Notes: generated by a model from the letters alone, not told the origin. A DNA stretch of 64,000 bases from Clostridiales bacterium (GCA_003452395.1 DMOI01000040.1:3508-67507); one strand, 5' to 3'. Positions 14,208 to 28,940 are shown, counted from the stretch's first letter. Program-made: numbers and translations.

Positions 14208-15254
14208 ATGTATGATTTAGAGTTTGTTCATGAGAGAAATAAAATATTAATTAAATTATATTTTGCGTTAGTACTAATCGGACTTTTTGTTGCAGTACCA
14301 AATTCATATGGCTCGTCATGCTTTGTAGAAGTTGTAGTAACTATGCCGACTGCAGCAGGAGTCGCTTTAATTATTACGTATTTTATAAAGATTAAAAAGT
14401 ACATTGTAGCTTCAATGTATGCAATGATATTAAGTATAGGAGCTATTTGTTTTATACTTACATATGCTCATCCGATTGCCTTAAATTATATTTCATTTTT
14501 TATGCTCTTAGGTATGTCTACGTATTATCATAATTATAGGACAGTAATTCTTTCGTCAATAATTATCCTGTTTTCAACTAATTACTTTATGGTTATGGAT
14601 GGATCAGTTGTATTTCAAAGATTACCAGGAGATAATTTTATAAACATGGCTGTAGCAGCTAACATTGTTGTAATTATGGTTTGTATGATGGTGATAGGGC
14701 AAATATATATTGGCAAAAAAATGCTAAAACAGATAACTAGTACATATGAAAAACTTGAGAAGACTCAGAAGGAGCTTATTATTGATGAGTTAACAGGTAT
14801 ATACAATTATAGGTATTTTGAGTATATAGTACAAGAAAAGATAAAAAACAAAGATAAGTTTGAACTTATTATGATAGACATGGACAAGTTTAAAAATGTA
14901 AATGATACATTTGGACATTTAGCTGGTAATAAAGTGTTACAAGATTTAACAAATTTTATAAAATCAAAATTAGATGATAAAGATATATTTTGCAGATTTG
15001 GAGGAGACGAATTTTTTATAATATTGAATAATCTAGAAACTGCTGAGGAAACAGCAGAAAATATTATGAAAGACAAGAAAAAAATCTGTACGCTATATGA
15101 AGGTAATAAAATAAATTATGAGTTTAGTGTGGGACTATATAAACATGAAAATGAAAATGAAGATATAGACTATAAAGAAATAATAGAAAAAGTTGATAAA
15201 GCGATGTATGAAGCGAAACAAACAGGCGGAAATAAAATAATGAGATGTGGGTGA
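14208..15254 (+). CDS. Membrane-anchored GGDEF-domain diguanylate-cyclase-like protein
   Basis: 348 aa. About 5-6 N-terminal TM helices, then DELTGIYNYRYF...IMIDMDKFKNVNDTFGHLAGNKVL...CRFGGDEFFIIL...SVGL...AMYEAKQTGGNK. Confidence 0.88.
   Translation: MYDLEFVHERNKILIKLYFALVLIGLFVAVPNSYGSSCFVEVVVTMPTAAGVALIITYFIKIKKYIVASMYAMILSIGAICFILTYAHPIALNYISFFMLLGMSTYYHNYRTVILSSIIILFSTNYFMVMDGSVVFQRLPGDNFINMAVAANIVVIMVCMMVIGQIYIGKKMLKQITSTYEKLEKTQKELIIDELTGIYNYRYFEYIVQEKIKNKDKFELIMIDMDKFKNVNDTFGHLAGNKVLQDLTNFIKSKLDDKDIFCRFGGDEFFIILNNLETAEETAENIMKDKKKICTLYEGNKINYEFSVGLYKHENENEDIDYKEIIEKVDKAMYEAKQTGGNKIMRCG
14589..14959 (+). repeat. 371-bp direct repeat, copy 1 (inside the membrane GGDEF gene)
   Basis: Collinear with 16509-16879 at a constant offset of 1920 nt. 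About 11 mismatches by manual count, no indels. Confidence 0.9.
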
Positions 15255-15577
15255 AAGTAAATTGTATGTAACACAATATGAGGTTAAATAAATGATAATA
15301 TGAAATTTCTATGGAAAGAAATATATGACGCATAAATTTTAAAAATAAGTTATTATATCAAACTAATTATATACTGCGAATATATCCTAAAATATATTTA
15401 ACAAGTGCTTATTAGGGGAATGACTTACTGAAGAGCCGTATGCCTTAACAGGTCACGTGCCTCTACCAAACTGGAGGAGGAAGTTCAATAAAAGTGGCTA
15501 AAAAGCCTTTAAATATAAGTTTTTTTGAATTTGAAAATCGGCTATTATACATTATTTTTAAGGAGGTGATATTTATT

Positions 15578-16453
15578 ATGGTGTTGTCTAATTATTTACC
15601 AGATAATGAAAAAGTTATTTATAAATGTGAAAAGAAACTATGGATTGTTATAGCATATATTTGTTTTTTGATTTTATTTTTAATAGTCTTTGGAATTGCG
15701 TCTAAAGAGATAGTAAGTTATTATACAGAAGGTAATGTTATTTTTGATATGGTAAGTGATTATTCTTTGATGCTGATTACGGCTATATTTATAGTGATAT
15801 TAATTAGTGCAGGTGTCAGTTATATTTTTGATATATTTTTAATAACCAATAATTATATAGTTATAAGACGTGGTATACTGGGAGAAATATGTTTAATTAA
15901 AAGAAAACAAATAGTAGCGAAACGCGAAATAGTTATTACCGAAAAAGTAGCGAAATGTTATAAAGTTGAGTTTCTTTTAAAAAATGGTAAAATAATAAAT
16001 TCAGGTGACTTACACTGCAACTCTAGTACGTATTATGATTTAAATGGAAAACTTAATTATCCTAAGGTTGAAAATAAAAAAGATTTTTTAAATTTCAAAA
16101 TCAATTCAGATAATAATGTTTTAGTTAAGAAAAATTTAAATTTTTCTATAATAGGCTATGGTGTGTACTTGATTTTAATGATTTTCTCTTTACTTCTTTT
16201 TAGTGGAATTAATGAGAAATACGGTGAGCAAAAAAAATTTGAATTGCATGGAATAAGTAACAAATACACGGGATACAATAAAGGTACTATATATTATATT
16301 TCAATATTAGAAGATCAAAGTCAAAAAGAGTATAATATACATGTAAGTGGAGATATCTATGATTCTATTACACCTAATAAAAAAATTAAAGTTACAGGGA
16401 AGACAGGCTGCTTAGGTATTGTATATGACTTGAAAATGGTAAATATAGATTAA
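15578..16453 (+). CDS. Membrane protein with YdbS/YdbT-like bacterial PH (bPH_2) domain and a second TM plus a C-terminal beta-rich domain
   Basis: Start moved to ATG 15578, behind an AGGAGG RBS (track start 15494 is GTG with no RBS). LPDNEKVIYKCEKK + two TM + NNYIVIRRGILGEICLIKRKQIV is the bPH_2 pattern. Confidence 0.6.
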   Translation: MVLSNYLPDNEKVIYKCEKKLWIVIAYICFLILFLIVFGIASKEIVSYYTEGNVIFDMVSDYSLMLITAIFIVILISAGVSYIFDIFLITNNYIVIRRGILGEICLIKRKQIVAKREIVITEKVAKCYKVEFLLKNGKIINSGDLHCNSSTYYDLNGKLNYPKVENKKDFLNFKINSDNNVLVKKNLNFSIIGYGVYLILMIFSLLLFSGINEKYGEQKKFELHGISNKYTGYNKGTIYYISILEDQSQKEYNIHVSGDIYDSITPNKKIKVTGKTGCLGIVYDLKMVNID

Positions 16454-16508: not shown

Positions 16509-16879
16509 ATGGTTATGGATGGATCAGTTGTATTTCAAAGGTTATCAAGAGACAATTTTATAAACATGGCTGTAGCAGCTAACATTGTTGTAATTATGGT
16601 TTGTATGATGGTGATAGGGCAAATATATATCGGCAAAAAAATGCTAAAACAGATAACTAGTACATATGAAAAACTTGAGAAGACTCAGAAGGAGCTTATT
16701 ATTGATGAGTTAACAGGTATATACGATTATAGGTATTTTGAGTACATAGTACAAGAAAAGATAAAAAATAAAGATAAGTTTGAACTTATTATGATAGACA
16801 TGGACAAGTTTAAAAATGTAAATGATACATTTGGTCATTTGGCTGGTAATAAAGTGCTACAAGATTTAACAAATTTTAT
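16509..16879 (+). repeat. 371-bp direct repeat, copy 2
   Basis: See 14589-14959. Similarity ends abruptly after ...caaattttat. Confidence 0.9.
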
Positions 16880-16919
16880 TGAAGAATGCAAAAAGATAAG
16901 TTCAACAGGAAATAAATAA
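16509..16919 (+). pseudogene. Truncated duplicate of the membrane GGDEF gene (last TM to mid-GGDEF domain, lacks the GGDEF motif)
   Basis: 136-aa ORF about 97% identical at nucleotide level to codons ~128-251 of 14208-15254. It then reads 13 unrelated codons and stops before the RxGGDEF active site. Confidence 0.75.
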
Positions 16920-17827: not shown

Positions 17828-19176
17828 AAAAAGAAATCTATATTGAAGGTAAAATTGAGGATGTAAAGTTTCCAAATAAGTCAATCCTAGAGCATGAAGG
17901 GAAAAAAGTTGTGGTAAAAGGTGGACTTATAGGGCAAACTGTGAGAGTTAGAGCAATAAGTAAAAGGGGCAGATTACAGGGGAAAATAGTTGAGGTTTTA
18001 GAGAAATCTCCGTATGAAAAGAAGGCATTATGCATGCATTTTGATACTTGTGGAGGGTGCACATATCAAAATTTAAGATATAGAGAGCAACTAAAGCTAA
18101 AACAAGATCAAGTAAAGAGTATATTAGATGAAGTTATAGATTATAAATATAAATTTTGTTCAATAGAGCCTAGTCCTACTGAATACGGATATAGAAATAA
18201 AATGGAGTTTTCTTTTGGTGATGAATATAAAGGGGGAGAGTTAACTCTAGGACTACACAAGAGTGCCTCTATGTATGATGTAATAACTACATCGAATTGC
18301 CAAATAGTAGATAAAGATTATAGGAAAATTCTTTGTGTTGTACTGCACTTTTTTAAAAAGCTTAACATTGATTATTATAACAGAAAGACACATATTGGTG
18401 GTTTGAGACATCTTATAATAAGAAAAGCTTCAAAAACAAATGAAATTATGGTAAATATAGTTACAAGTTCACAAATAGATGTTGATTTTAATCATTTTGC
18501 ACACAAACTTTTAAATATAAAACTAGATGGAGCTATAGAAAGTGTGATACATACTATTAATGATTCAATTTCTGATGTTGTTAAACCTGAAAAAATTGAA
18601 GTTTTATATGGAAGGGATTATATTGTCGAAGATATTTTAGGACTTAAATTTAAGATATCGCCATTTTCATTTTTTCAAACTAATTCTCTTGCGGCAGAGA
18701 AATTATATTCTATTATAAAAGGATTTGTGGGATTTACAAACAATAAAGTAATATTTGATCTTTATTCTGGTACAGGAACTATTGCTCAAATAATTGCTGT
18801 TGTTGCAAAAAAAGTATATGGTATTGAACTCATCGAAGAAGCAGTAGAAGCTGCACGTGAAAATGCTAAAATTAATGGACTGAAAAATTGTGAATTTATA
18901 GCAGGTGATTTGCTAGAAAAAATAGAAGAACTAAAGGATGAACCGCACGTAATAGTTATAGATCCACCAAGAGCTGGAATACATCCTAAGGCACTAGAAA
19001 AGATTATTAATTTTGATGCCGAGCATATAATATATGTTTCTTGTAATCCTATAACACTTGCAAATGATTTAAAGATATTGCAGGAAAATGGATATGATGT
19101 AGAAAAGGTTCAATGCGTGGATATGTTTCCGCACACACCTCATGTGGAGACTGTTGTGAAACTATCAGCGAATTGA
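17824..19176 (+). CDS. TrmA/RumA-family 23S rRNA (uracil-C5)-methyltransferase with TRAM domain and Fe-S cluster
   Basis: 450 aa. N-terminal TRAM-like barrel, Cys cluster CMHFDTCGGCTYQ, SAM fold DLYSGTGTI, catalytic YVSCNP. ATGA overlap with the upstream gene. Confidence 0.9.
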   Translation: MKKEIYIEGKIEDVKFPNKSILEHEGKKVVVKGGLIGQTVRVRAISKRGRLQGKIVEVLEKSPYEKKALCMHFDTCGGCTYQNLRYREQLKLKQDQVKSILDEVIDYKYKFCSIEPSPTEYGYRNKMEFSFGDEYKGGELTLGLHKSASMYDVITTSNCQIVDKDYRKILCVVLHFFKKLNIDYYNRKTHIGGLRHLIIRKASKTNEIMVNIVTSSQIDVDFNHFAHKLLNIKLDGAIESVIHTINDSISDVVKPEKIEVLYGRDYIVEDILGLKFKISPFSFFQTNSLAAEKLYSIIKGFVGFTNNKVIFDLYSGTGTIAQIIAVVAKKVYGIELIEEAVEAARENAKINGLKNCEFIAGDLLEKIEELKDEPHVIVIDPPRAGIHPKALEKIINFDAEHIIYVSCNPITLANDLKILQENGYDVEKVQCVDMFPHTPHVETVVKLSAN

Positions 19177-19321
19177 AATTAATGTAAAAACACATAAAAG
19201 AAGTAAGTCAGTAAGATTCAAAAGTTATATATTTAATGTAACTAATAAGGAGTTGCTTAGCTACATACCAAGTGGGTGAAAATAACTTTTACAATTCTAA
19301 TTTATTTAAGGGGGTGATATT

Positions 19322-19414
19322 ATGTCAAAAGGAGATAAACCATCGGCACCAAAACCACAAGTGAAGAAGCCAAAACAAGATAAACCCAAAAAAGATAAGA
19401 AAAATTATAATTAA
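19322..19414 (+). CDS. 30-aa lysine/proline-rich small protein
   Basis: Not in the track. AAGGGGGTGAT RBS 5 nt upstream of ATG. MSKGDKPSAPKPQVKKPKQDKPKKDKKNYN*, followed by a strong terminator. Confidence 0.4.
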   Translation: MSKGDKPSAPKPQVKKPKQDKPKKDKKNYN

Positions 19415-19424
19415 CGATAAGTAC

Positions 19425-19463
19425 AAAAGTTTTATCTAGATAAATTATAGATAAAACTTTTTT
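19425..19463 (+). terminator. Rho-independent terminator
   Basis: 14-bp stem aaaagttttatcta/tagataaaactttt plus a T run. Confidence 0.75.
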
Positions 19464-19495
19464 GTTATATTTAAAAACTTTTTTATCGAAATATA

Positions 19496-19524
19496 TTGAT
19501 TTTTTATTTATTTAGGTATATACT
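19496..19524 (+). promoter_or_regulatory. Sigma-A type promoter of the hydrogenase-like operon
   Basis: TTGATT, 17 nt, TATACT. Lies ~80 nt upstream of the first gene. Confidence 0.5.
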
Positions 19525-19603
19525 ATTCGAGTATGTAATTTCCATAATAGTATTTATTATACATAATCTTAAATTATAAAATTCCAAAAGAGGAGATTTT
19601 TTT

Positions 19604-21397
19604 ATGCTTGAATCATTTTATAATATAATGATGACCGATTGGTTGTCTATTTTCTTTGTTGCGCTAATTATTTTGATTAGTATTCCAATTTGTCTATTTT
19701 CTATAGGATATGTTAAAGAATATAGACAAAACTACTCGATAAAATATATTTATAGTATGATGACGTTTTTTATATTGTCAATGATCGGAGTCGTTTTCTC
19801 AAATAATAGTATAGTGTTTATGATATTTTGGGAGATTATGTCGATGACCTCGTTTTTTCTTGTTATTTATGAATACAAAAATAAAGAAAATTTGAGTTCG
19901 GGGATTATGTACTTTGTGATGACTCATATAAGCGGACTGGTGCTAATGATAATGTTTGCACTCATCTATAAATATACTAACAGTTTTGATTTTAAAGAAA
20001 TAATGGAATATTCTAACAAGTTTACTCTTACTCAAAAAACTATAATATTTATACTGGCTATAATAGGCTTTGGTGCAAAGGCTGGACTCATGCCACTTCA
20101 TGCATGGCTTCCGAAGGCTCACCCGTCAGCACCTTCAAATGTGTCAGCACTTATGTCGGGTGTTATGCTTAAGGTTGCTGTATATGGATTTATACGTACT
20201 GCTTTTATGTTTTTAGGAGATGTACCGTATAGCTATGGTATCTCCCTAATGATAATTGGAACATTGACAGCTATTATATCCATCTTGAACGCATCTGCCC
20301 AGCGTAATATGAAGAAGCTTTTAGCATATTCAAGCGCGGAAAATATAGGACTTATCTTTTCAGTTCTTGGACTTGCAATTATTTTCAAGAGCTATGGGTT
20401 GAATACTTTGGCAGTATTAGCTCTAACTGCAGGGTTGTTTCATGCAGTAAATCATGGCATTTTTAAGAGTCTTTTATTTACGGCTGCGGGTAGCGTTTTA
20501 TATTCGACAGGAACTAAAAATATGAATGAACTTGGAGGACTTTATAAAAAAATGAAATTTGCTACTTTTTGTGCATTTGTAGGAACTGCTGCAATTTCTG
20601 CTATACCTCCACTTAATGGATTCGCAAGTGAAGTAGCTATTTTTATGAGTTTTATACAAGTAGCAGGTAAGATAGATAGTATTTGGATGATAGTTATTAT
20701 TTTATGCGGAAGTATTTTAGCATTGACTAGTGGGGCTGTAATGTATGTTTCAGTAAAAAGTTTTGGAATTACATATCTGGGGGAGCCAAGAAGTATAAAA
20801 GCACAAAACATACATAAGGTACCGATTTCTATGAATATTGGAATGGGATTGTTATCGGTATATGCAATTTTATTTGGGGTCCTTTCGAAATTTATATTTG
20901 AATATATAATAAAAATTTCACAAGATATTATAAATGTAGGGAACATTAGACTTGATGAAAATACACTTCAAAACTTTGTTGGTTTTGATATAGTAGTAAT
21001 GGCTAGCATAATTATCTCGGTGACTGTAGTGTTTTTACTAGTAAATTACATAACTCGCAAGAATAAAACATTTAAAGTATATGATACGTGGGGATGTGGA
21101 TTTAATGAAGCAAAACCATATATGCAATATAGTGGGAGCGGATTTACTCAGCCACTAAGTAAAATAGCGACAAGTATTATAGGCTACAAAAAAACAGTAT
21201 TAAAAGAAGAAACAATCTTTTTTAGACAACATACCACTGACATGATTGAAAAATATTTATATAATCCAATTATTAGTTTGGTAGATTATCTTGCTATAAA
21301 GATTACAAAAATACATTACGGACAAATTCAGGTATATATTGCCTATATAATTATGTCATTAATTATTGCGGTAGTATGCGTAGTTAAGTTTATCTAG
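19604..21397 (+). CDS. HyfB/HycC-like antiporter-type membrane subunit (NuoL/ND5 family)
   Basis: 597 aa, polytopic. GLMPLHAWLPKAHPSAPSNVSALMSGVMLKVAVYG signature of proton-conducting membrane transporter subunits. Confidence 0.88.
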   Translation: MLESFYNIMMTDWLSIFFVALIILISIPICLFSIGYVKEYRQNYSIKYIYSMMTFFILSMIGVVFSNNSIVFMIFWEIMSMTSFFLVIYEYKNKENLSSGIMYFVMTHISGLVLMIMFALIYKYTNSFDFKEIMEYSNKFTLTQKTIIFILAIIGFGAKAGLMPLHAWLPKAHPSAPSNVSALMSGVMLKVAVYGFIRTAFMFLGDVPYSYGISLMIIGTLTAIISILNASAQRNMKKLLAYSSAENIGLIFSVLGLAIIFKSYGLNTLAVLALTAGLFHAVNHGIFKSLLFTAAGSVLYSTGTKNMNELGGLYKKMKFATFCAFVGTAAISAIPPLNGFASEVAIFMSFIQVAGKIDSIWMIVIILCGSILALTSGAVMYVSVKSFGITYLGEPRSIKAQNIHKVPISMNIGMGLLSVYAILFGVLSKFIFEYIIKISQDIINVGNIRLDENTLQNFVGFDIVVMASIIISVTVVFLLVNYITRKNKTFKVYDTWGCGFNEAKPYMQYSGSGFTQPLSKIATSIIGYKKTVLKEETIFFRQHTTDMIEKYLYNPIISLVDYLAIKITKIHYGQIQVYIAYIIMSLIIAVVCVVKFI

Positions 21398-21410: not shown

Positions 21411-22340
21411 ATGCTTATATATATTGTTTATATTTTACAACCTTTACTAATTTTACTTTTAGCACCTCTGTTTATGGGTATTTTAGGTAAAGTCAAAGCT
21501 TGTTTTAGAGGATATACGGGACCATCAGTATTTCAAGTGTACTATGATATAGCCAAACTAATGAAAAAAGACGAAGTAATTTCCAAAAGTAGTTCTTTTG
21601 TAACAACAATAGGACCCTTGTTTACGCTCGTTGCGGCAGTGTCATGCACATTCATTATTCCTGTATTCTATACATCTTTAGCATTTAGTTTTGGAAATAT
21701 ATTTGTTATAATTTTTACATTAGGTATCATAAAGTTTATTACTTCTTTAATAGGTTTAGACTCGGCAAGCACATTTGGAGGAATGGGATCAAGTAGGGAG
21801 CTTTTTATTTCGATGCTTGCTGAACCAATAATGTTTGTTGTGATTACATTTTTGTTCATTGAGACTAAGTCATTTAATATATTTACGATAGCTTATGCAA
21901 ACAGCACACAGCTGTCATTTGGGCCAGGTCATGTACTTGCTGCACTAGCATTTTTTATATTGCTTTTAGCAGAAAATGCAAGGATGCCGGTAGATAATCC
22001 AGAGACTCATTTGGAACTTACGATGGTCCACGAAGCAATGATATTAGACTTATCTGGGAAAAGGTTGGCGTATATTGAGTTAGCTTCAGCGATAAAATTT
22101 GTATTATTTTTAACAATTCTTATTAATGGATTTTTGCCTTATGGAATAGCTACGGGACTTAATTTATTAACAATGGGTACGGCAATAATTTTGTTTATCA
22201 TTAAACTAATCGGATGTCTTATTGTGATAGCTGTTATAGAGACGACAATGGCGAAGTTTAGATTATTCAGAGTGCCAGAACTCTTGACATTCGCATTTGC
22301 TCTAGGAATTGTCTCGATAATAATAAATCACTACGCGTAA
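21411..22340 (+). CDS. HycD/HyfC-like membrane subunit (NuoH/ND1 family)
   Basis: 309 aa. ENARMPVDNPETHLELTMVHEAMILDLSG is the HycD/NuoH hallmark region. Confidence 0.88.
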   Translation: MLIYIVYILQPLLILLLAPLFMGILGKVKACFRGYTGPSVFQVYYDIAKLMKKDEVISKSSSFVTTIGPLFTLVAAVSCTFIIPVFYTSLAFSFGNIFVIIFTLGIIKFITSLIGLDSASTFGGMGSSRELFISMLAEPIMFVVITFLFIETKSFNIFTIAYANSTQLSFGPGHVLAALAFFILLLAENARMPVDNPETHLELTMVHEAMILDLSGKRLAYIELASAIKFVLFLTILINGFLPYGIATGLNLLTMGTAIILFIIKLIGCLIVIAVIETTMAKFRLFRVPELLTFAFALGIVSIIINHYA

Positions 22341-22354
22341 GGAGGGGAGCATTT

Positions 22355-22966
22355 ATGTTAGAAACAATTCTGGAAGTTTTATTGATAGTGACGATTTTAA
22401 TGACGGGATTTAGAAGGATAAAATTGTTCATTTATGCCTTTGCGGTACAGTCACTATGTATTGCATTAATTTGTTTTTATTTAGCATACACAACTGGGGA
22501 AAACAGTTTATATAGTGTAGGCGTAATGACAATATTCATGAAAGTAATTTTAACAAGTGGACTGATTAAAAGGGTATCAAAAAGTTTAAAAGAAAATAGA
22601 GAAAAAGAATTTATAATAGGCGGGCTATTGTCATATGTGTTATGCATAGCTGGAATTATTATTACATACGGCCTTTTAGCGGATTTCGGACCGCCTTTCC
22701 TAAAAGTAGGAGTTGTACTCATGATAGTTGGCTCGATTCTTCTAGTAGGACGAAAAGAAGCCATTACGCAAATGATTGGTTTTTTAACTATAGAAAATGG
22801 GATTGTACTCCTAGAAATTTATATGGTTAAAATGTCACTGATTATTGAGGCAGGATTAATGCTCGAGGTTGTAATACTTGCAATCATAATGGGTACTATG
22901 ATTTTTAATATAAATAGAGAATTTGATACCATTAATACTGATACATTCTCAAATACTAAGCGATAG
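22355..22966 (+). CDS. HyfE-like small membrane subunit
   Basis: 203 aa, ~6 TM. ...ITQMIGFLTIENGIVLLE... resembles hydrogenase-4 component E. Confidence 0.75.
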   Translation: MLETILEVLLIVTILMTGFRRIKLFIYAFAVQSLCIALICFYLAYTTGENSLYSVGVMTIFMKVILTSGLIKRVSKSLKENREKEFIIGGLLSYVLCIAGIIITYGLLADFGPPFLKVGVVLMIVGSILLVGRKEAITQMIGFLTIENGIVLLEIYMVKMSLIIEAGLMLEVVILAIIMGTMIFNINREFDTINTDTFSNTKR

Positions 22967-22977
22967 CAGGTGAAGAA

Positions 22978-24438
22978 ATGATTATTAACATGATATTTGT
23001 ATTATTTATAGGTATGATTCTAATATCTAGTTTACTTAAAAACATTAAAGTTATTTCAATTATAAATATAGTTGGTACAATGCTAATTGGAGGCTGTTTT
23101 ATTAGTGTTGTGGATAGCGTTTATAAATATGAACACATAAGTTTCTTAAATAATTTTTTATATATTGATAGCTTAAATGTGATTCAGATATTTATTATTA
23201 TGAGCATAAGTATAATCTCTTTGCTATACGCACACAAGTATATAGCTCATGAGACGAAAGAGCATATAATTACTATAGGTAAGGCCAAAACATTTTATAT
23301 ACTATTTGATTTGTTCGTGATGTCAATGATTATTGTTGCAATAAGTAACAATATTGTTGCAATGTGGATGGGACTTGAGGCTACTACAATCTCAACAGCA
23401 TTTCTGATTGGTTTTAGTAAAAACAAGCTTTCTATTGAAGCGGCATGGAAATATATAATTATATGTTCATTAGGTATAGGTATAGGGCTTATAGGAATTA
23501 TTCTGTTTATATATTCAGCAGGTGTCACAGAGGCTTCGGAAATAGCAAACTGGACATATCTTGTAAGCAAAGCAGGGATTTTAGATAAAGATATTGCAAA
23601 AATAGCTTTTGTATTTATTTTTATAGGAATAGGGACGAAAGCAGGAATTGCACCTATGCATACATGGCTGCCTATTAGTCACAGTGAAGCACCATCTCCG
23701 ATTAGTGCACTGATGTCAGGAGCTCTATTAAACCTTGCACTATATGTTATAGTGAGGTTCTATATAATTATAAAACTAGTAAGCGGACTTGAAAATCTAA
23801 AATACTTGTTTATTATATTTGGATGCATATCTCTTATAGTTTCTTCGTTTAGCATATTGAGGCAAACTAATTATAAACGTCTTCTTGCATTTTCATCGAT
23901 AGAAAACATAGGAATAATGACATTAGGTTTTGGATTTGGAGGGTATATTGCGATATTTGGTTCGTTATTACATGGAGTAATACATGCATTCGGGAAAGCG
24001 TTACTTTTTCTTGTCTCGGGGAATATTCTCAGTGTCTATAAAACAAAACGAATGGATGTAGTCCAAAATTTAATAAAAACTATGCCAATTAATTCAGTAT
24101 TTCTAATATTAGGAATGCTAATCATTGTGGGAGCTCCACCGTTTGCTTCATTCTTAAGTGAATATAAAATAATGATTGGTGGTATACATAATGATTACCT
24201 CATTTACGCTATCATTTATGCTGTGTGTTTACTATTAGTTTTTATCGGTTTTTTAAAGTCTTTTATAAAAATGATATTTGAACAAGATAACAGTAAAATA
24301 TATACAAAGTCAGATATGGACAAAGAAAATATTCTTCCAATCGTTATAGCCTTTGTGCTTGTAGTGCTTACAAGCGTTTTCTTTGGAGGTTATTTGACTG
24401 AGATACTTGACAGAGCAACATTAATAATTGAAAGTTGA
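22978..24438 (+). CDS. HyfF-like antiporter-type membrane subunit (NuoN/NuoM family)
   Basis: 486 aa. GIAPMHTWLPISHSEAPSPISALMSGALLNLALY signature. Confidence 0.88.
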   Translation: MIINMIFVLFIGMILISSLLKNIKVISIINIVGTMLIGGCFISVVDSVYKYEHISFLNNFLYIDSLNVIQIFIIMSISIISLLYAHKYIAHETKEHIITIGKAKTFYILFDLFVMSMIIVAISNNIVAMWMGLEATTISTAFLIGFSKNKLSIEAAWKYIIICSLGIGIGLIGIILFIYSAGVTEASEIANWTYLVSKAGILDKDIAKIAFVFIFIGIGTKAGIAPMHTWLPISHSEAPSPISALMSGALLNLALYVIVRFYIIIKLVSGLENLKYLFIIFGCISLIVSSFSILRQTNYKRLLAFSSIENIGIMTLGFGFGGYIAIFGSLLHGVIHAFGKALLFLVSGNILSVYKTKRMDVVQNLIKTMPINSVFLILGMLIIVGAPPFASFLSEYKIMIGGIHNDYLIYAIIYAVCLLLVFIGFLKSFIKMIFEQDNSKIYTKSDMDKENILPIVIAFVLVVLTSVFFGGYLTEILDRATLIIES

Positions 24439-24470: not shown

Positions 24471-26036
24471 ATGAAAATAAATCATTTAGAAAAAGAGATA
24501 ACTAATATAAATAATAGAATCCAAACTCAAATAAAAAATAATAATGAGTTATACATAAATACAACATTTAGAGAAGTAAAAAATATTGTAGGGATATTAA
24601 TAAATAACCTAAAACTAATTTTTGTAGGTGAGTTTTGCATTCAAGAAGAATTATTTAGTATAAATATAATATTAACGAATAGAAGACAAGGTTATTTTGT
24701 AATTGTAAGATATGATGTTAGTGATGCACTTGTGTCATTGCAAGATTTTATTCTTCAAAGTCATTTATTTGAAAGAGAGATTTCTGATTTATATGGAATA
24801 AAGATTGTAGATGGTAAGGATACTAGGCATATTGTGAAACACGAGGGATGGCCAGAAAATATTTTCCCACTTAGGAAGGATTATGCATTTGGCGATAAAG
24901 TTCCGCTTTTAAGTGAGGTGAGCGGATATAAGTTTAAGAAAATATCGGGCGAAGGCGGATATCAGATTCCTGTTGGACCAGTACATGCAGGAATAATTGA
25001 GCCTGGGCATTTTAGATTTAGTGTTATTGGAGAGCCTATAGAAAATCTGGAGATACGCCTTATGTACAAACATAAGGGTATTGAAAAAATATGTGAAAAT
25101 ATTAATGCAAATAAGCTAAATCTTTTGTTTGAGAGAGTTGCAGGTGAAAGCTCGGTGGCATATGCTGAATGCTATGCATTACTTGTTGAAAAACTAATAG
25201 AGTTTAAACCTACAGATGAGGTTAAAGCATTAAGAGTTGTTTTACTAGAACTAGAGAGAATCTATAACTATCTAGACGATATAGCTGGAATGTGTGTTGA
25301 CGTTGGATATAGCTATCCTGCTAAGAAATTTAACTATTTTTCAGAAATGATACATCAACTATGTGAAAGAGTAACGGGCAGTAGATTTTTGAGGAACACA
25401 ATTGTCCCTTGTGGGATAAATATTGATTTTAATGAAAAGAATAAAGCTGATATTTTAGATACATTAAAAAATATGGAGAAAAGATTAAATGCTATAATAG
25501 AAAAAACACTAGGCTCCGTTTCATTCTTAGATAGAGTTGAGGATACAGGAGTAGTCTATAATAAAACAGCGAATAGGTTAGGTATGACTGGGGTTGTTGG
25601 AAGAGCAGCTGGTATAGAGTATGACGTAAGGCGAAGCTTTCCATACGAATTATATAGAGAAATCAAATTAAAAGCAAATACTGAAATTTCGGGTAGCGTA
25701 TTTGAAAGATATAAATTAAAGATAGCTGAGATTAGAGATGCATTTCTATTTATAGGGAAAGCATTATCGCTTATCGAAGGTAATGTTGTTAAAAATAAAC
25801 CAGAAGTAATGGTAGAAGAGGGATTAGAAGCGTACGCTACAGTAGAAACAGTAAAAGGGGAACTAGTTGTATATGGCAAAATGGGCAAAGATAACAAATT
25901 CGATAGAATTTATTTTAAAACACCGTCATTTACAAATTGGAATGGTCTAACCTATGCGGTCTCGGGAGAAATAGTGCCAGATTTTCCTTTATGTAATAAA
26001 AGTTTCAATATGTCTTATGCTGAAAATGATAGGTAG
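24471..26036 (+). CDS. HycE/HyfG/EchE-like fused NuoC-NuoD-type large subunit lacking the [NiFe] cysteine ligands
   Basis: 521 aa. NuoC-like N-terminal part (LFEREISDLYGI...WPENIFPLRKDY). Large-subunit core VGPVHAGIIEPGHFRF, LELERIYNYLDD. L1 position reads ERVAGESSVAY. The C-terminus reads SFNMSYAENDR*. Confidence 0.85.
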   Translation: MKINHLEKEITNINNRIQTQIKNNNELYINTTFREVKNIVGILINNLKLIFVGEFCIQEELFSINIILTNRRQGYFVIVRYDVSDALVSLQDFILQSHLFEREISDLYGIKIVDGKDTRHIVKHEGWPENIFPLRKDYAFGDKVPLLSEVSGYKFKKISGEGGYQIPVGPVHAGIIEPGHFRFSVIGEPIENLEIRLMYKHKGIEKICENINANKLNLLFERVAGESSVAYAECYALLVEKLIEFKPTDEVKALRVVLLELERIYNYLDDIAGMCVDVGYSYPAKKFNYFSEMIHQLCERVTGSRFLRNTIVPCGINIDFNEKNKADILDTLKNMEKRLNAIIEKTLGSVSFLDRVEDTGVVYNKTANRLGMTGVVGRAAGIEYDVRRSFPYELYREIKLKANTEISGSVFERYKLKIAEIRDAFLFIGKALSLIEGNVVKNKPEVMVEEGLEAYATVETVKGELVVYGKMGKDNKFDRIYFKTPSFTNWNGLTYAVSGEIVPDFPLCNKSFNMSYAENDR

Positions 26037-26047
26037 GTGAGTTTATA

Positions 26048-26755
26048 ATGGGAATTATTTTAGATAGAATTAAATATGGTAATGAAACAAAAAAGGACAT
26101 ATTATTTGATAATCCAGATTCATACGGTAAAGTAAATGTAGATAGTGATAAATGTAATGGATGTACAAAATGTGTAAATGAATGTGTTGCAAACGCTATT
26201 GAAATTAAAAAGGGTAAAGCAGTTGTTGATTATAAAAAATGCATTTACTGTAGAAACTGTATCGGTGTATGTGATAAGTTAGCAATAGAAATGGAACATG
26301 ACTGCAAATTTTGCGACATAGAACAAGCAGGCAATGAGCTTGCGAGAAAGATATACGAGAAATTTAAGAGATCGCTGGTACTTAGATCAGTTGATACGGG
26401 TTCGTGCAATGCTTGCATGCTGGAGCTTTCTGCTACTCAAAATACATACTATGATATCTCAAGGTTTGGGGTGAAATTTGCAGCATCTCCAAGACATTCA
26501 GACGGTATCGTAGTAACAGGGCCAGTAACAATTAACATGAGGGAAGCGTTAATAAAGACATACAATGCTATGCCAGAACCGAAACTAGTTATTGCAGTAG
26601 GTACTTGCTCTTTTGATGGAGGAATATTTAAAGATGGGTACGGGAATGTGGAAAGACTTAGCGACATTATGCCAGTGGACTTGTACATACCGGGGTGTCC
26701 ACCTTCCCCACAGGGTATTGTGTATGGATTGCTGAAGCTAATAGATAGGATTTAA
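26048..26755 (+). CDS. Fusion of a 2x[4Fe-4S] ferredoxin domain (HycF-like) with a NuoB/HycG-type small subunit
   Basis: 235 aa. CNGCTKCVNEC and CIYCRNCIGVC in the N-terminal part. GSCNACMLE, GTCSFDGG and PGCPPSP (NuoB-type cluster ligands) in the C-terminal part. Confidence 0.85.
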   Translation: MGIILDRIKYGNETKKDILFDNPDSYGKVNVDSDKCNGCTKCVNECVANAIEIKKGKAVVDYKKCIYCRNCIGVCDKLAIEMEHDCKFCDIEQAGNELARKIYEKFKRSLVLRSVDTGSCNACMLELSATQNTYYDISRFGVKFAASPRHSDGIVVTGPVTINMREALIKTYNAMPEPKLVIAVGTCSFDGGIFKDGYGNVERLSDIMPVDLYIPGCPPSPQGIVYGLLKLIDRI

Positions 26756-26763
26756 AAAATATC

Positions 26764-26792
26764 TTGACAAAAAACGGAAAAGTATTTATAAT
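26764..26792 (+). promoter_or_regulatory. Consensus sigma-A promoter of the aspS leader
   Basis: TTGACA, 17 nt, TATAAT. Confidence 0.75.
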
Positions 26793-26799
26793 CTAGTAA

Positions 26800-27116
26800 C
26801 ATATTAAATCTATGATGAGAAGAAGTAAGTGATTAACTCAACCAGAGAGAGAGGTCTAGGCTGAAAGCCTCTTTGAGCAATAAGTACTGAATAACACCTC
26901 GGAGAGTTGGCAAAATCAAACGTAACTCGCGTTAAGAGAAAAAAGGAATTGAAAATTGAAAAGCTAAGATTGAAGGTTATTACATAGAACTTTCAACTCT
27001 CAACTTTCAACTTTCAACTTAAATAAGGGTGGCACCACGGGTAGAAAACTCGTCCCATAGTAGAAGTCAGATGTCGGAGTTTAGATATCGGAATTTTATA
27101 TGAGACGAGTTTTTTG
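26800..27116 (+). promoter_or_regulatory. T-box riboswitch leader controlling aspS
   Basis: Stem I elements: TGATGAGAAGAAGTA K-turn region, AGAGAG, distal CTGAAAG loop. Conserved T-box AAGGGTGGCACCACGGG at ~27024-27042. Terminator arms aaaactcgtc (27045-27054) / gacgagtttt (27104-27113) plus a T run. Confidence 0.85.
26947..27020. repeat. Palindromic TTGAAA(A/G) heptamer element (family C) inside the T-box leader
   Basis: 5' arm aattgaaaattgaaaagctaagattgaaggtt, loop attacatag, 3' arm aactttcaactctcaactttcaactttcaactt. Located where Stem III normally sits. Confidence 0.7.
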
Positions 27117-27149
27117 TTCACAAAAAATCACAAAACAGGAGGAAACAAC

Positions 27150-28940
27150 ATGAGTGAAAATATGAAGGGAATGCATCGCACACATAGATGTACAGATGTA
27201 ACAGAAAAATTTATAGATGAAAAGGTAGTAGTAGCAGGTTGGGTTGATGTAAGACGTGATCTTGGAGGACTTATTTTTATAGACCTTAGAGATGTTAGCG
27301 GTAAGGTTCAAGTTGTATTTAATGCAAGTTATATACACAGAGAAGGTTTTGAAAAAGCTGAGAAGTTAAGAAGCGAGTATGTAATTATGGTAGAAGGGAT
27401 TGTTGAAAAAAGAGCAGATGGAACTGTAAATACTAGAATGAAAACAGGTACAGTAGAAATAGTGGCTACTGATTTTAGAATATTATCAGAATCACAAACG
27501 CCTCCATTTCAAATAGAAGAAAATGCTAATGTAAACGAAGAGTTGAGACTGACATATAGATATCTTGATTTGAGACGTCCTGACATACAAAGAAACTTTA
27601 TTTTAAGACACAATGTGTATAAGTCAGTTAGAGAGTATTTTGCAGCTGAGAGATTTTTAGAAATAGAAACTCCTGTACTTACAAAAAGCACTCCAGAAGG
27701 AGCAAGAGATTATCTGGTTCCTAGTAGAGTGCATCCAGGTATGTTTTATGCGTTACCACAATCTCCGCAGTTATTTAAGCAGCTTCTTATGGTGTCTGGA
27801 TTTGATAGATACATGCAAATTACGAAATGTTATAGAGATGAGGATCTTAGAGCTGATAGACAACCAGAATTTACTCAAATAGACACAGAAATGTCATTTG
27901 TTGATGTTGATGATGTTATCCGAATAAATGAAAGAATGCTTAAAAAAGTATTTAAAGATTGCATGAATCTAGATATAGAGCTACCAATTAAGAGAATGAC
28001 TTATGAATATGCAATGAATAAATACGGTAGCGACAAACCAGATTTAAGATATGGACTTTCGATAGTGGATTTATCAGATGTAGTTAAAAACTGTGGATTT
28101 AAAGTGTTTGCTGATGCTATAGCAGATGGCGGTAGCGTAAGAGCTATAAATGTAAAGGGACAAGTGGAAATGCCACGTAGACAGCTTGATAGCTTGACAG
28201 AGTTTGTTAAAATATTTAAAGCAAAGGGTATGGCTTGGATAGGGATTGAAGCTGATGGGACGTACAAATCTGCTATAACAAAATTTTTGACTAATGAAGA
28301 GACTGCAGATATAGTAAAAGCTATGGACGGAAAACCAGGAGATCTTTTATTATTCTGTGCAGATAAAAATAAAGTAGTATTTGATTCACTAGGAGCTTTA
28401 AGACAGGAGCTAGCAAAAAGATTAGGACTTATTAATAAAGATGAATATAATTTCGTATGGATAACAGAATTTCCACTTCTTGAGTATTCAGAAGAGGATA
28501 AGAGATATGTTGCTATCCACCACCCATTTACAGCTCCTATGGACGAAGATATAGAACTACTCGATGAAGATCCAGTAAAAGTTAGATCTAAAGCTTATGA
28601 TATAGTGTTAAATGGATATGAGATAGGTGGAGGAAGCGTAAGAATACATCAACGAGAAATACAAGAAAAAATGTTCAAGCTTCTTGGATTTACTGAGGAA
28701 CAATCATACGAGAGATTCGGATTTTTACTAAATGCATTTAAATATGGAGTGCCACCTCATGCAGGACTTGCATATGGACTTGACCGCCTTGTAATGATTA
28801 TGACAGGATGTGATAATATAAGAGATGTAATAGCATTCCCGAAAACTAAAGATGCTAGTTGTCTAATGACAGAGGCACCAAATGTAGTAGAAAATAAGCA
28901 ACTTAAAGAGTTGTCGATAAAGTTGGATTTAAGTAAATAA
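27150..28940 (+). CDS. aspS: Aspartate--tRNA ligase (bacterial type with GAD insertion domain)
   Basis: 596 aa from ATG 27150, behind an AGGAGGA RBS. Class II motifs FYALPQSPQLFKQ, RCYRDEDLRADRQPEFTQID, GGGSVRIH, GLDRLVM. Confidence 0.95.
   Translation: MSENMKGMHRTHRCTDVTEKFIDEKVVVAGWVDVRRDLGGLIFIDLRDVSGKVQVVFNASYIHREGFEKAEKLRSEYVIMVEGIVEKRADGTVNTRMKTGTVEIVATDFRILSESQTPPFQIEENANVNEELRLTYRYLDLRRPDIQRNFILRHNVYKSVREYFAAERFLEIETPVLTKSTPEGARDYLVPSRVHPGMFYALPQSPQLFKQLLMVSGFDRYMQITKCYRDEDLRADRQPEFTQIDTEMSFVDVDDVIRINERMLKKVFKDCMNLDIELPIKRMTYEYAMNKYGSDKPDLRYGLSIVDLSDVVKNCGFKVFADAIADGGSVRAINVKGQVEMPRRQLDSLTEFVKIFKAKGMAWIGIEADGTYKSAITKFLTNEETADIVKAMDGKPGDLLLFCADKNKVVFDSLGALRQELAKRLGLINKDEYNFVWITEFPLLEYSEEDKRYVAIHHPFTAPMDEDIELLDEDPVKVRSKAYDIVLNGYEIGGGSVRIHQREIQEKMFKLLGFTEEQSYERFGFLLNAFKYGVPPHAGLAYGLDRLVMIMTGCDNIRDVIAFPKTKDASCLMTEAPNVVENKQLKELSIKLDLSK

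Follow-up and report, generated by a model that had tools for sequence, protein, structure and literature searches.

Complexes of the Ehr type (energy-converting hydrogenase-related) are defined by a large subunit that resembles those of the group 4 hydrogenases and lacks the residues that coordinate nickel and iron (PMC6349859, PMC10284858). Citations in PMC6349859, PMC4758237, and PMC10284858 trace the class to Coppi 2005 and Marreiros et al. 2013. It has been reported to be phylogenetically close to group 4f and of unknown function (PMC6349859, PMC10284858, PMC4758237). HydDB deliberately leaves Ehr out as not metabolising H2 (PMC5037454), and Ehr is not mentioned in the Journal of Biological Chemistry review on the evolution of complex-I-like complexes. 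Ehr complexes are widely distributed kin of complex I and of the energy-converting hydrogenases, occurring in Geobacter, Nitrospira, Melainabacteria, Margulisbacteria, rhizobia and, by this analysis, many Clostridia. Its reaction has stayed unsolved in the searchable literature since the class was named, and some authors dismiss the complexes as dead enzymes. The gene described here lies in a 64,000-nucleotide stretch of DNA from a Clostridiales bacterium (GCA_003452395.1, DMOI01000040.1:3508-67507), which was analysed as a whole and is referred to as the window. The gene encodes a clean, strongly conserved clostridial member of the known Ehr/Hyq class. It is read as Ehr-type, functional, and not a NiFe enzyme, with a probability of about 0.9. 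The large subunit and the segments of its former active site are as follows.

24471-26036, + strand: Ehr/HyqG-type large subunit, a NuoC-NuoD fusion of 521 amino acids without [NiFe] ligands (Pfam, phmmer, MAFFT)
24972-25019, + strand: beta1-beta2 loop VGPVHAGIIEPGHFRF, residues 168-183 (mapped to HycE His188/Glu193 and NuoCD His224)
25131-25163, + strand: former L1 motif ERVAGESSVAY, residues 221-231 (HycE/HyfG/NuoCD alignments)
26007-26036, + strand: former L2 motif NMSYAENDR and stop, residues 513-521 (HycE/HyfG/NuoCD alignments)

Loss of the NiFe ligands and conservation of the replaced site

The 521-amino-acid protein contains PF00329 (Complex1_30kDa, NuoC) at residues 59-141 and PF00346 (Complex1_49kDa, NuoD). 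The NiFeSe_Hases Pfam model gave no match to it at E ≤ 0.001. The closest solved structure by sequence is HycE of the Escherichia coli formate hydrogenlyase (7z0s_E, E 2.9e-43, phmmer), followed by MbhL, Thermus Nqo4, and mitochondrial NDUFS2. An initial annotation, made from the sequence alone, had called the protein a group-4-type NuoC-NuoD fusion. The two Pfam domains, and HycE as the best match by both sequence and fold, agree with that call, and the strings quoted in its support, VGPVHAGIIEPGHFRF and LELERIYNYLDD, are found in the translation.

Ligand columns were read from the phmmer alignment to 7z0s_E and from MAFFT alignments with MG1655 HycE, HyfG, and NuoCD. In all of these Ala224 occupies the column of HycE Cys241, Ser227 that of Cys244, Ser515 that of Cys531, and Glu518 that of Cys534. 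At L1, the pattern R-x-C-G-x-C-x-x-x-H is replaced by R222-V-A224-G-E-S227-S-V-A-Y231, compared with R239-V-C241-G-I-C244-G-F-A-H248 in HycE, and Glu226 sits between the two former cysteine columns. At L2, the pattern D-P-C-x-x-C-x-x-R/H is replaced by N513-M-S515-Y-A-E518-N-D-R521, compared with D529-P-C531-Y-S-C534-T-D-R537. The last residue, Arg521, falls in the column of the HycE cleavage-site Arg537, which is also the column of the final NuoCD residue. E. coli HycE and HyfG extend 32 residues past this position, while the window protein stops there. The initial annotation had reported both CxxC pairs as replaced (by Ala, Ser, Ser, and Glu) and the C-terminal extension as missing. These alignments reproduce that reading, with no shift of the motifs and with their coordinates exact. 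The large subunit is thus predicted to be unable to hold a [NiFe] centre.

The window protein has seven cysteines (56, 208, 234, 275, 298, 314, and 508). None is invariant in the family and no conserved cysteine pair is formed. Cys508, the equivalent of Cys491 of Azorhizobium caulinodans HyqG, is 84% conserved. A CxxC motif was sought in the two alternative frames around L1 and L2 and none was found; both frames are full of stops. The stop codon of the large-subunit gene is 11 nucleotides from the ATG of the next gene. A frameshift hiding a CxxC segment, which the initial annotation had named as a possible flaw, is ruled out by the closed frames, this short gap, and the common end point of the full-length homologues.

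The 120 best database relatives of the window protein come from Clostridia and have 54-85% identity to it. All 120 keep R-[VI]-[AS]-G-E-S-[ST]-x-A-Y at the former L1, and every full-length protein among them ends in N-M-S-Y-[SA]-E-N-D-[RK]-stop. The replacement of the ligands is not due to chance, because the same motifs recur across this range of identity. The relatives include Clostridium magnum, C. drakei, C. homopropionicum, C. estertheticum, C. algoriphilum, Fervidicella metallireducens, Parasporobacterium paucivorans, and Desulfonispora thiosulfatigenes. An identical protein is recorded from a Clostridiales metagenome-assembled genome (MAG; P0001) and is present on six contigs.

In an alignment of 44 family sequences, His172, Arg222, Tyr231, Lys462, Ser515, Tyr516, Glu518, Asn519, and Asp520 are invariant, and Glu177, Glu226, Ser227, Asn266, and Asn513 are nearly so. 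Mean conservation is 93% over 23 pocket columns and 70% over the whole protein. Columns that are at least 90% conserved make up 78% of the pocket and 33% of all columns. Since the replacement motifs are kept and the pocket columns are more conserved than the rest, the substituted site is under purifying selection. The initial annotation called the subunit more degenerate than Pyrococcus Mbx/Mbs. All four ligands are indeed lost, but the word degenerate misleads because the substituted pocket is under strong purifying selection. A pseudogene or a decaying gene was rejected on the same evidence, as motifs and end point are kept throughout the family.

That the gene is a non-functional relic, or that a frameshift, a truncated gene, or another sequencing or assembly error lies behind the observation, is almost certainly wrong. 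The source of the window is a MAG, and a recent paper assumes that Geobacter Ehr is non-functional (PMC13194489). Against this stand six intact open reading frames (ORFs) with 11-32 nucleotide spacing and ribosome-binding sites, the identical protein on six contigs, the motifs and end point common to 120 homologues, the lack of CxxC in the other frames, and a pocket that is more conserved than the remaining protein.

Two orthologues deviate from the family consensus. The Desulfonispora protein (P0086; L006 10001-11566) has a Cys at the second L1 column (RVSGECS), and its loop Glu is changed to Gly (GPGHFR). In the C. drakei protein (P0061; L001 10001-11581), Gly225 is replaced by Cys (RMACESS). 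The nearest species-level relatives of the window's large subunit are from the groundwater MAGs Clostridiales bacterium GWD2_32_19 (85% identity) and GWE2_32_10 (74%; loci L008 and L009). One match at 60% identity is labelled Solirubrobacterales; its sequence is of clostridial type and the label is probably a binning error.

Placement in the Ehr class and chemistry of the pocket

An exhaustive search covered 1.84 billion representatives. The window family forms a single 50%-identity cluster, after which scores fall from 696 to 369 bits. Most of the 150 representatives that follow are Cys-less, with E-R-[IV]-S-G-D-[SET]-S-x-A-H at the first site and S-F-N-L-S-Y-[AS]-G-N-D-L-stop at the second. 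Four-Cys proteins with S-F-E-L-C-Y-S-C-x-D-R-stop are interleaved among them. In a neighbour-joining tree (357 columns, 100 bootstraps), the window family is recovered as monophyletic in 100/100 bootstraps. It is nested several nodes deep within Cys-less sequences, and its sister group contains a four-Cys sequence in 2/100 replicates. The Cys-less radiation includes P0216, a Cys-less protein of 504 amino acids with Cys491 and Cys497, which fits the published description of A. caulinodans HyqG. The gene set expected of Ehr was also found, with PF00361 twice, PF00146, and PF01058 in a six-gene cassette that is syntenic in nine contexts. The likeness to Ehr and NuoD that the initial annotation had noted is therefore upheld. 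The neighbouring Cys-bearing clade is probably group 4f, going by PMC10284858 and the HydDB-type assignment of the C. drakei orthologue.

The orthologues in C. drakei (B9W14_RS11450-11475) and C. carboxidivorans (Ccar_RS06735-06755) were scored 'NiFe_4f' by similarity and were both later discarded for missing cysteine patterns (PMC9431212 supplement). This loss had already been reported, so the case is no novelty; the window protein belongs to an established class. The novelty implied by the initial annotation was overstated, as loss of the ligands is what defines a class named between 2005 and 2013. A literature search for published work on the clostridial cassette found nothing relevant.

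The former active-site columns were compared among 6 sequences of the window family, 18 relatives with all four cysteines, and 102 further Cys-less relatives. The whole Cys-less radiation has in common a Ser at the third Cys column and an acidic residue between the L1 columns, which is Glu in the window family and Asp in 82% of the other Cys-less relatives. The family-specific residues are Glu at the fourth Cys column (Gly in 91% of the other Cys-less relatives), Lys462 (Arg in 95%), Phe/Tyr267 (His in 91%), Tyr231 (mostly His), and the terminal Arg/Lys (mostly Leu). Compared with other Ehr, the window family is its own tight clade with its own pocket signature.

An AlphaFold2 monomer model built from the 44 sequences has a mean predicted local distance difference test score (pLDDT) of 80 and a predicted template-modelling score (pTM) of 0.84. 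The first Foldseek match is HycE (7z0s_E, template-modelling score 0.83), followed by the fused NuoCD of Aquifex and of E. coli. None of the sequence or fold matches listed (April 2026 copy) is described as Ehr or Hyq, so no solved structure of the Ehr/Hyq class seems to exist.

Conservation of the beta1-beta2 loop within the family is 95-100%. The hydrogenase-type His172 and Glu177 of this loop, which map to HycE His188 and Glu193, are both retained, and the complex-I quinone His is lacking. Arg222 is also retained. On the proton path, Arg378, Glu420, and Asp520 preserve HycE Arg395, Glu437, and Asp536. The roles of the pocket and proton-path residues in formate hydrogenlyase are taken from PMC9474812. 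In the canopy, HycE Arg478 is changed to Lys462, the complex-I state found in NuoCD (Lys537), and HycE Asp529 is changed to Asn513. Further replacements are HycE His248 to Tyr231, HycE His284 to Tyr/Phe267, and HycE Ile243 to Glu226. The quinone head-group ligands Nqo4 His38 and Tyr87 correspond to E. coli NuoCD His224 and Tyr273 (PMC7684303, PMC9474812), and in the window protein these are Ile176 and Gly225. Because both the NiFe ligands and the quinone Tyr/His are absent, the site is of neither the hydrogenase type nor the complex-I quinone type. By its residues, the pocket is a polar chamber with three carboxylates, apparently wired to the proton path, beside a four-Cys cluster.

The chemistry of the pocket bears on two proposals. 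In the first, the carboxylate/serine pocket (Glu177, Glu226, Ser227, Ser515, Glu518, Lys462, Asn513, Tyr231, and Tyr516) could be a new catalytic or cofactor-binding site and not a leftover. This is decidedly unlikely as a specific claim. The Glu-for-Gly version of the pocket occurs in cultivable clostridia and could be a route to solving Ehr function.

In the second, the complex would be a complex-I-like ferredoxin:quinone oxidoreductase in which the pocket and the NuoH/NuoB/NuoD-like cavity bind menaquinone or an exogenous quinone or humic analogue. It would then resemble the 11-subunit complex I without NuoEFG, or Fpo. This is unlikely, although several features fit it. Lys462 matches NuoCD Lys537, Glu518 stands opposite NuoCD Asp593, the protein ends in D-R as NuoCD does, the fused NuoCD proteins are the next-best fold matches, and the Hyq authors suggested a quinone as partner. 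In some related loci, genes for flavodoxin-like proteins, FMN (flavin mononucleotide) reductase, aldo-keto reductase, and MarR/MerR proteins also lie near the cassette, and such genes typically belong to responses to quinones or electrophiles. However, the proximal cluster is bound by CxxC and not by the tandem CC of cluster N2 (PMC7684303), and the replacement of NuoCD Tyr273 and His224 removes the known quinone ligands. The stress-type neighbour genes are not conserved across loci. Most of the host clostridia are not known to make quinones.

The six-gene cassette and its surroundings

The large-subunit gene is fifth in a tightly packed run of six genes, which are separated by 11-32 nucleotides and each preceded by a ribosome-binding site. 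The remaining genes of the cassette and a candidate promoter are as follows.

19496-19524, + strand: candidate sigma-70-type promoter TTGATT-17-TATACT, about 80 nucleotides upstream of the cassette (consensus scan, 9/12)
19604-21397, + strand: HyfB-like antiporter-like membrane subunit, 597 amino acids (PF00361)
21411-22340, + strand: HyfC/HycD/NuoH-like membrane anchor, 309 amino acids (PF00146)
22355-22966, + strand: HyfE-like small membrane subunit, 203 amino acids (NCBIfam NF008556)
22978-24438, + strand: HyfF-like antiporter-like membrane subunit, 486 amino acids (PF00361)
26048-26755, + strand: small subunit with a 2x[4Fe-4S] ferredoxin domain and a NuoB-like domain, 235 amino acids (Fer4 families, PF01058)

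The same gene order was found in nine genomic contexts whose neighbours are otherwise unrelated, and no conserved partner gene that could serve as a clue to the acceptor was found across these nine. The cassette contains no regulator gene. A scan of genome contigs with the large-subunit protein gave five loci, too few for a study of co-occurrence. From its gene content, the complex is predicted to be a six-subunit, compact complex-I/Hyf-like Ehr membrane machine of an uncultured, low-GC (guanine plus cytosine) member of the Clostridia.

The small subunit was aligned with HyfH, HycF, HyfI, and HycG. Its N-terminal domain is HyfH/HycF/NuoI-like and its NuoB/HycG-like domain holds the proximal [4Fe-4S] cluster. 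All 12 iron-sulfur cysteines (36/39/42/46, 65/68/71/75, and 120/123/187/217) are conserved in five orthologues. The proximal cluster motif, S-C120-N-A-C123, has the hydrogenase-type CxxC spacing and not the complex-I CC. This cluster bears on the proposal that the complex could be a sulfane-sulfur (polysulfide) reductase like MBS, with catalysis at the proximal [4Fe-4S] cluster itself. MBS is the one characterised relative that combines lost NiFe chemistry with ferredoxin use (PMC7684303), and the hosts Desulfonispora thiosulfatigenes and Parasporobacterium paucivorans live on sulfur chemistry. The cluster motif of MBS, however, is three residues shorter, which gives a three-Cys cluster with an open iron. 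The CxxC loop of the small subunit in the window has the HycG/HyfI length and the four cluster cysteines are conserved, and the large-subunit pocket is a polar, acidic one that retains the proton path. A sulfur reductase is therefore only remotely likely.

The HyfB-like subunit matches the NCBIfam model 'hydrogenase 4 subunit B' with 560 bits, below the cutoff, from model position 76. It is about 65 N-terminal residues (roughly two helices) shorter than E. coli HyfB. Its orthologues are all 588-597 amino acids long, compared with 672 in HyfB, so the short N-terminus is a family trait and not a truncated call. The retained pump residues are Glu77, Lys159, Lys190, His280, His284, Lys288, and Glu343. 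Its C-terminal segment carries an ND3-loop-type cysteine, Cys498, aligned with HycC Cys537. The HyfF-like subunit matches 'hydrogenase 4 subunit F' with 404 bits and retains Glu134, Lys221, His332, His336, Lys340, and Glu395; at the transmembrane helix (TM) 8 position it has Asn, which is also found in E. coli HyfF. Both antiporter-like subunits have the TM5 Glu, TM7 Lys, TM11 His-His-Lys, and TM12 Glu. In the membrane anchor, the HycD E-channel residues Glu130, Glu138, Glu188, Glu198, Glu202, and Glu208 are kept in the window and in four orthologues, and the column of HycD Glu201 is His. The roles of the pump and E-channel residues likewise follow PMC9474812. The HyfE-like protein matches NF008556 ('hydrogenase 4 membrane subunit') with E 2.7e-16, below the cutoff. 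All related loci have a gene of the same size without a Pfam match at this position.

The conserved membrane arm also admits a redox-gated or redox-assisted cation/proton antiporter, in which the membrane arm would do the work, and the iron-sulfur arm and the charged pocket would only sense or briefly hold electrons of the ferredoxin pool without a net terminal acceptor. No acceptor site is recognisable, titratable pocket residues lie where complex I couples charge to the E-channel, and the Mrp-like membrane arm is fully conserved. On the other hand, twelve iron-sulfur cysteines and a ferredoxin-type entry domain would be a costly sensor, and a three-cluster wire normally implies a through-flow of electrons. 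We know of no precedent for such a machine and regard it as quite improbable.

Accessory genes of hydrogenases were searched for by tblastn with E. coli queries. HypA-E, HycI, and HycH gave no match in the window or in the flanks of about 10 kilobases of eight related loci. No HycB/HyfA, HyfD, formate dehydrogenase, or CO dehydrogenase was found in the window or in the same flanks. These results bear on a cysteine-independent hydrogenase that would interconvert H+ and H2 at an unconventional site, as claimed for the 'endo-hydrogenase' Hyq. Deletion of hyqRBCEFGI in A. caulinodans altered H2 recycling and evolution in vivo, HyqG is likewise without both CxxC motifs, and the gene order is the same. 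The window protein and the HyqG-type P0216 have an identical beta1-beta2 loop (QIPVGPVHAGIIEPGHFRF), and DFPLCNKSFN.SY occurs in both. The proton-relay Glu177 is kept, and H+ is the single acceptor that all hosts of the class have at hand. Even so, this reading is very improbable. No metal ligand set remains for H2 activation, and neither hyp nor hycI genes were found near any of the nine loci. The exclusion of Ehr from HydDB (PMC5037454) points the same way. The Hyq evidence is genetic and physiological only, its authors call a NiFe site 'uncertain, if not unlikely', and four pocket columns distinguish the window family from Hyq.

Upstream of the cassette is a tiny Lys/Pro-rich ORF at 19323-19414 (MSKGDKPSAPKPQVKKPKQDKPKKDKKNYN) with a good ribosome-binding site, followed by a hairpin and a T-run. 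It is also called as a 30-amino-acid gene in an independent assembly (L016). The candidate promoter lies after this hairpin and T-run and is a weak candidate, because the AT-rich region gives many such matches. Rfam at gathering thresholds gave no match in the window by the default scan, and region 19150-19650 gave none at E ≤ 1. A riboswitch or leader upstream of the cassette was therefore dropped as a clue to function.

Directly after the cassette, a perfect sigma-70-type promoter (TTGACA-17-TATAAT) lies at 26764-26792, and a T-box leader at 26803-27060 (84.6 bits, E 5e-19) precedes aspS (27114-28940). The default scan of the window missed the T-box because 84.6 bits is below the Rfam gathering score of 93. 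A stretch of tandem 'ttcaact' repeats in the leader might account for the lower score. As aspS carries its own promoter and T-box leader, these mark the 3' end of the cassette.

A regulator of about 335 amino acids with two MarR-type domains adjoins the cassette in 4 of the 8 related loci. These are C. drakei (L001 3742-4758, - strand), C. estertheticum (L002 2148-3164, + strand), Fervidicella (L007 12298-13302, - strand), and a Joint Genome Institute metagenome contig (L014 11262-12239, - strand). The C. drakei, C. estertheticum, and Fervidicella regulators are orthologous, with 42-52% identity. Neither the window nor the Desulfonispora locus has the regulator. Palindromic ATTCGAAT boxes lie upstream of the C. 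drakei, C. estertheticum, and Fervidicella cassettes and may be the operator of the tandem-MarR protein. Boxes resembling TTAATATTCGAATACTAAT in C. drakei and Fervidicella contain this palindrome.

In Parasporobacterium paucivorans (L013 541-3970), two genes on the same strand lie directly upstream of the cassette. They encode a molybdopterin protein of the DMSO-reductase (dimethyl sulfoxide) family (868 amino acids, AhtL-like first domain) and a 4Fe-4S subunit with CarboxypepD_reg. The pair may be of the pyrogallol-transhydroxylase type. Such a molybdenum-bis-pyranopterin guanosine dinucleotide (Mo-bisPGD) oxidoreductase pair was rejected as a general partner of the complex, as it occurs in the Parasporobacterium locus only.

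Elsewhere in the window, a 300-nucleotide direct repeat with 97% identity occupies 14589-14888 and 16509-16808. The 136-amino-acid ORF at 16509-16919 is a copy of an internal part of the 348-amino-acid ORF at 14208-15254 (apparently GGDEF-type by sequence). An ORF for a 319-amino-acid membrane protein (15494-16453) lies between the copies. A partial gene duplication or an assembly artefact could explain the repeat.

Proposed function and comparison with known systems

The specific mechanism put forward for this functional, non-NiFe Ehr complex is that of a ferredoxin-linked, ion-translocating oxidoreductase. We give it somewhat less than even odds. A soluble low-potential carrier, most likely reduced ferredoxin, would dock on the ferredoxin-like domain of the small subunit. 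Electrons would travel along the three [4Fe-4S] clusters and end at the proximal cluster, beside the former NiFe pocket (Glu177, Glu226, Ser227, Tyr231, Lys462, Asn513, Ser515, Tyr516, Glu518, and Asp520). The pocket still has the proton-delivery residues of hydrogenases and complex I, and a proton-coupled reduction of some acceptor may take place there. That acceptor would be neither H+ at a NiFe site nor a bound quinone of the complex-I type. The resulting change in charge would pass through the HyfC-like E-channel to the two antiporter-like subunits, which would translocate H+ or Na+. Operation in the opposite direction is also conceivable. Catalysis in the pocket, pumping, the direction of the reaction, and the translocated ion are all deduced from sequence and remain putative.

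Several points weigh against this account. Ferredoxin is a probable partner by domain architecture and the absence of a partner gene only. The acceptor and the binding of any ligand in the pocket are hypothetical. AlphaFold2 confidence is low for two segments, residues 161-201 and 486-521, which form the pocket and make contact with adjacent subunits. The tree was built by neighbour joining from 357 columns, with no curated HydDB sequences as references. The 2026 paper cited above treats Geobacter Ehr as non-functional (PMC13194489). Finally, Azorhizobium Hyq, the sole genetically studied relative, has been reported to affect H2 uptake and evolution in vivo (PMC2650096, PMC3357923), which is at odds with a function other than H2 metabolism. 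The initial annotation had left the substrate open, and this is still the position in the searchable literature.

What is added here is the strong selection on the former active site in clostridia and a minimal six-gene unit that is self-contained and has a built-in ferredoxin-type entry domain. Cultivable hosts of orthologues include C. drakei, C. carboxidivorans, C. magnum, C. estertheticum, and Fervidicella. With a selected pocket, a minimal unit, and cultivable hosts, the clostridial cassette is a practical model for biochemistry and cryo-electron microscopy. Such proteins currently go under the names "hydrogenase-4 component G", "formate hydrogenlyase subunit 5", or "NADH-quinone oxidoreductase subunit C", and metabolic reconstructions of acetogens risk counting them wrongly as group 4f hydrogenases.

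Among the named systems, Hyq of A. caulinodans (hyqRBCEFGI) matches the cassette in its six structural genes and in their order (B, C, E, F, G, I). It also lacks HyfA and HyfD, and HyqG is a NuoC-NuoD fusion of about 500 amino acids without CxxC (PMC2650096, PMC3357923). Identity to Hyq is about 35%. HyqI is described as NuoB-only, with cysteines 55, 58, 112, and 152, whereas in the window a ferredoxin domain precedes the NuoB-like part, whose cysteines are 120, 123, 187, and 217. This fused ferredoxin domain sets the window family apart from Hyq, and the 2x[4Fe-4S] domain fused to the NuoB-like part likewise distinguishes its small subunit from that of Ehr. Hyq has a dedicated activator, HyqR, and the window cassette has no regulator gene. 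Of the conserved HyqG residues Cys258, Cys491, and Cys497, only the Cys491 equivalent (Cys508) is present, and the column of Cys497 is Met514. The Hyq hosts are microaerophilic, ubiquinone-containing diazotrophs.

The group 4a complexes Hyf and Hyc of E. coli are alike in their subunits (homologues of HyfB, C, E, F, G, and H+I), in the CxxC proximal cluster, in the Glu of the beta1-beta2 loop, in the E-channel, and in the ND3-loop Cys. Unlike them, the window has no HyfA/HycB, HyfD, HyfJ/HycH, HycI, or FdhF. The four NiFe cysteines are replaced, the C-terminal extension is missing, and a single protein combines HyfH with HyfI. The large subunit has 23-25% identity to HyfG/HycE.

Complex I (NuoD/NuoCD, Nqo4, NDUFS2) has the loss of all four cysteines, the canopy Lys, the acidic fourth Cys column, and the D-R end in common with the window protein, and the NuoC-NuoD fusion is found in E. 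coli and Aquifex. It differs in the quinone Tyr/His (Gly225 and Ile176 in the window), in CC instead of CxxC, and in its NuoEFG module. The window complex has two antiporter-like subunits and complex I has three, and NuoA/J/K are represented only by the HyfB tail and HyfE equivalents.

MBS (Mbx) of Pyrococcus furiosus is also a three-cluster complex derived from a hydrogenase; it is fed by ferredoxin and has given up H2 production (PMC7684303). In MbsL two of the four cysteines remain, and in complex I none (PMC7684303), and the window large subunit has no residual ligand Cys, so the comparison in the initial annotation, that this subunit is more degenerate than Mbs, was right. The proximal cluster of MbsJ is held by three cysteines on a shortened loop, compared with four conserved cysteines on a loop of HycG/HyfI length in the window. 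The MBS pocket is hydrophobic without a proton path, and the complex has 13 subunits with a full Mrp module, none of which is seen in the compact window complex.

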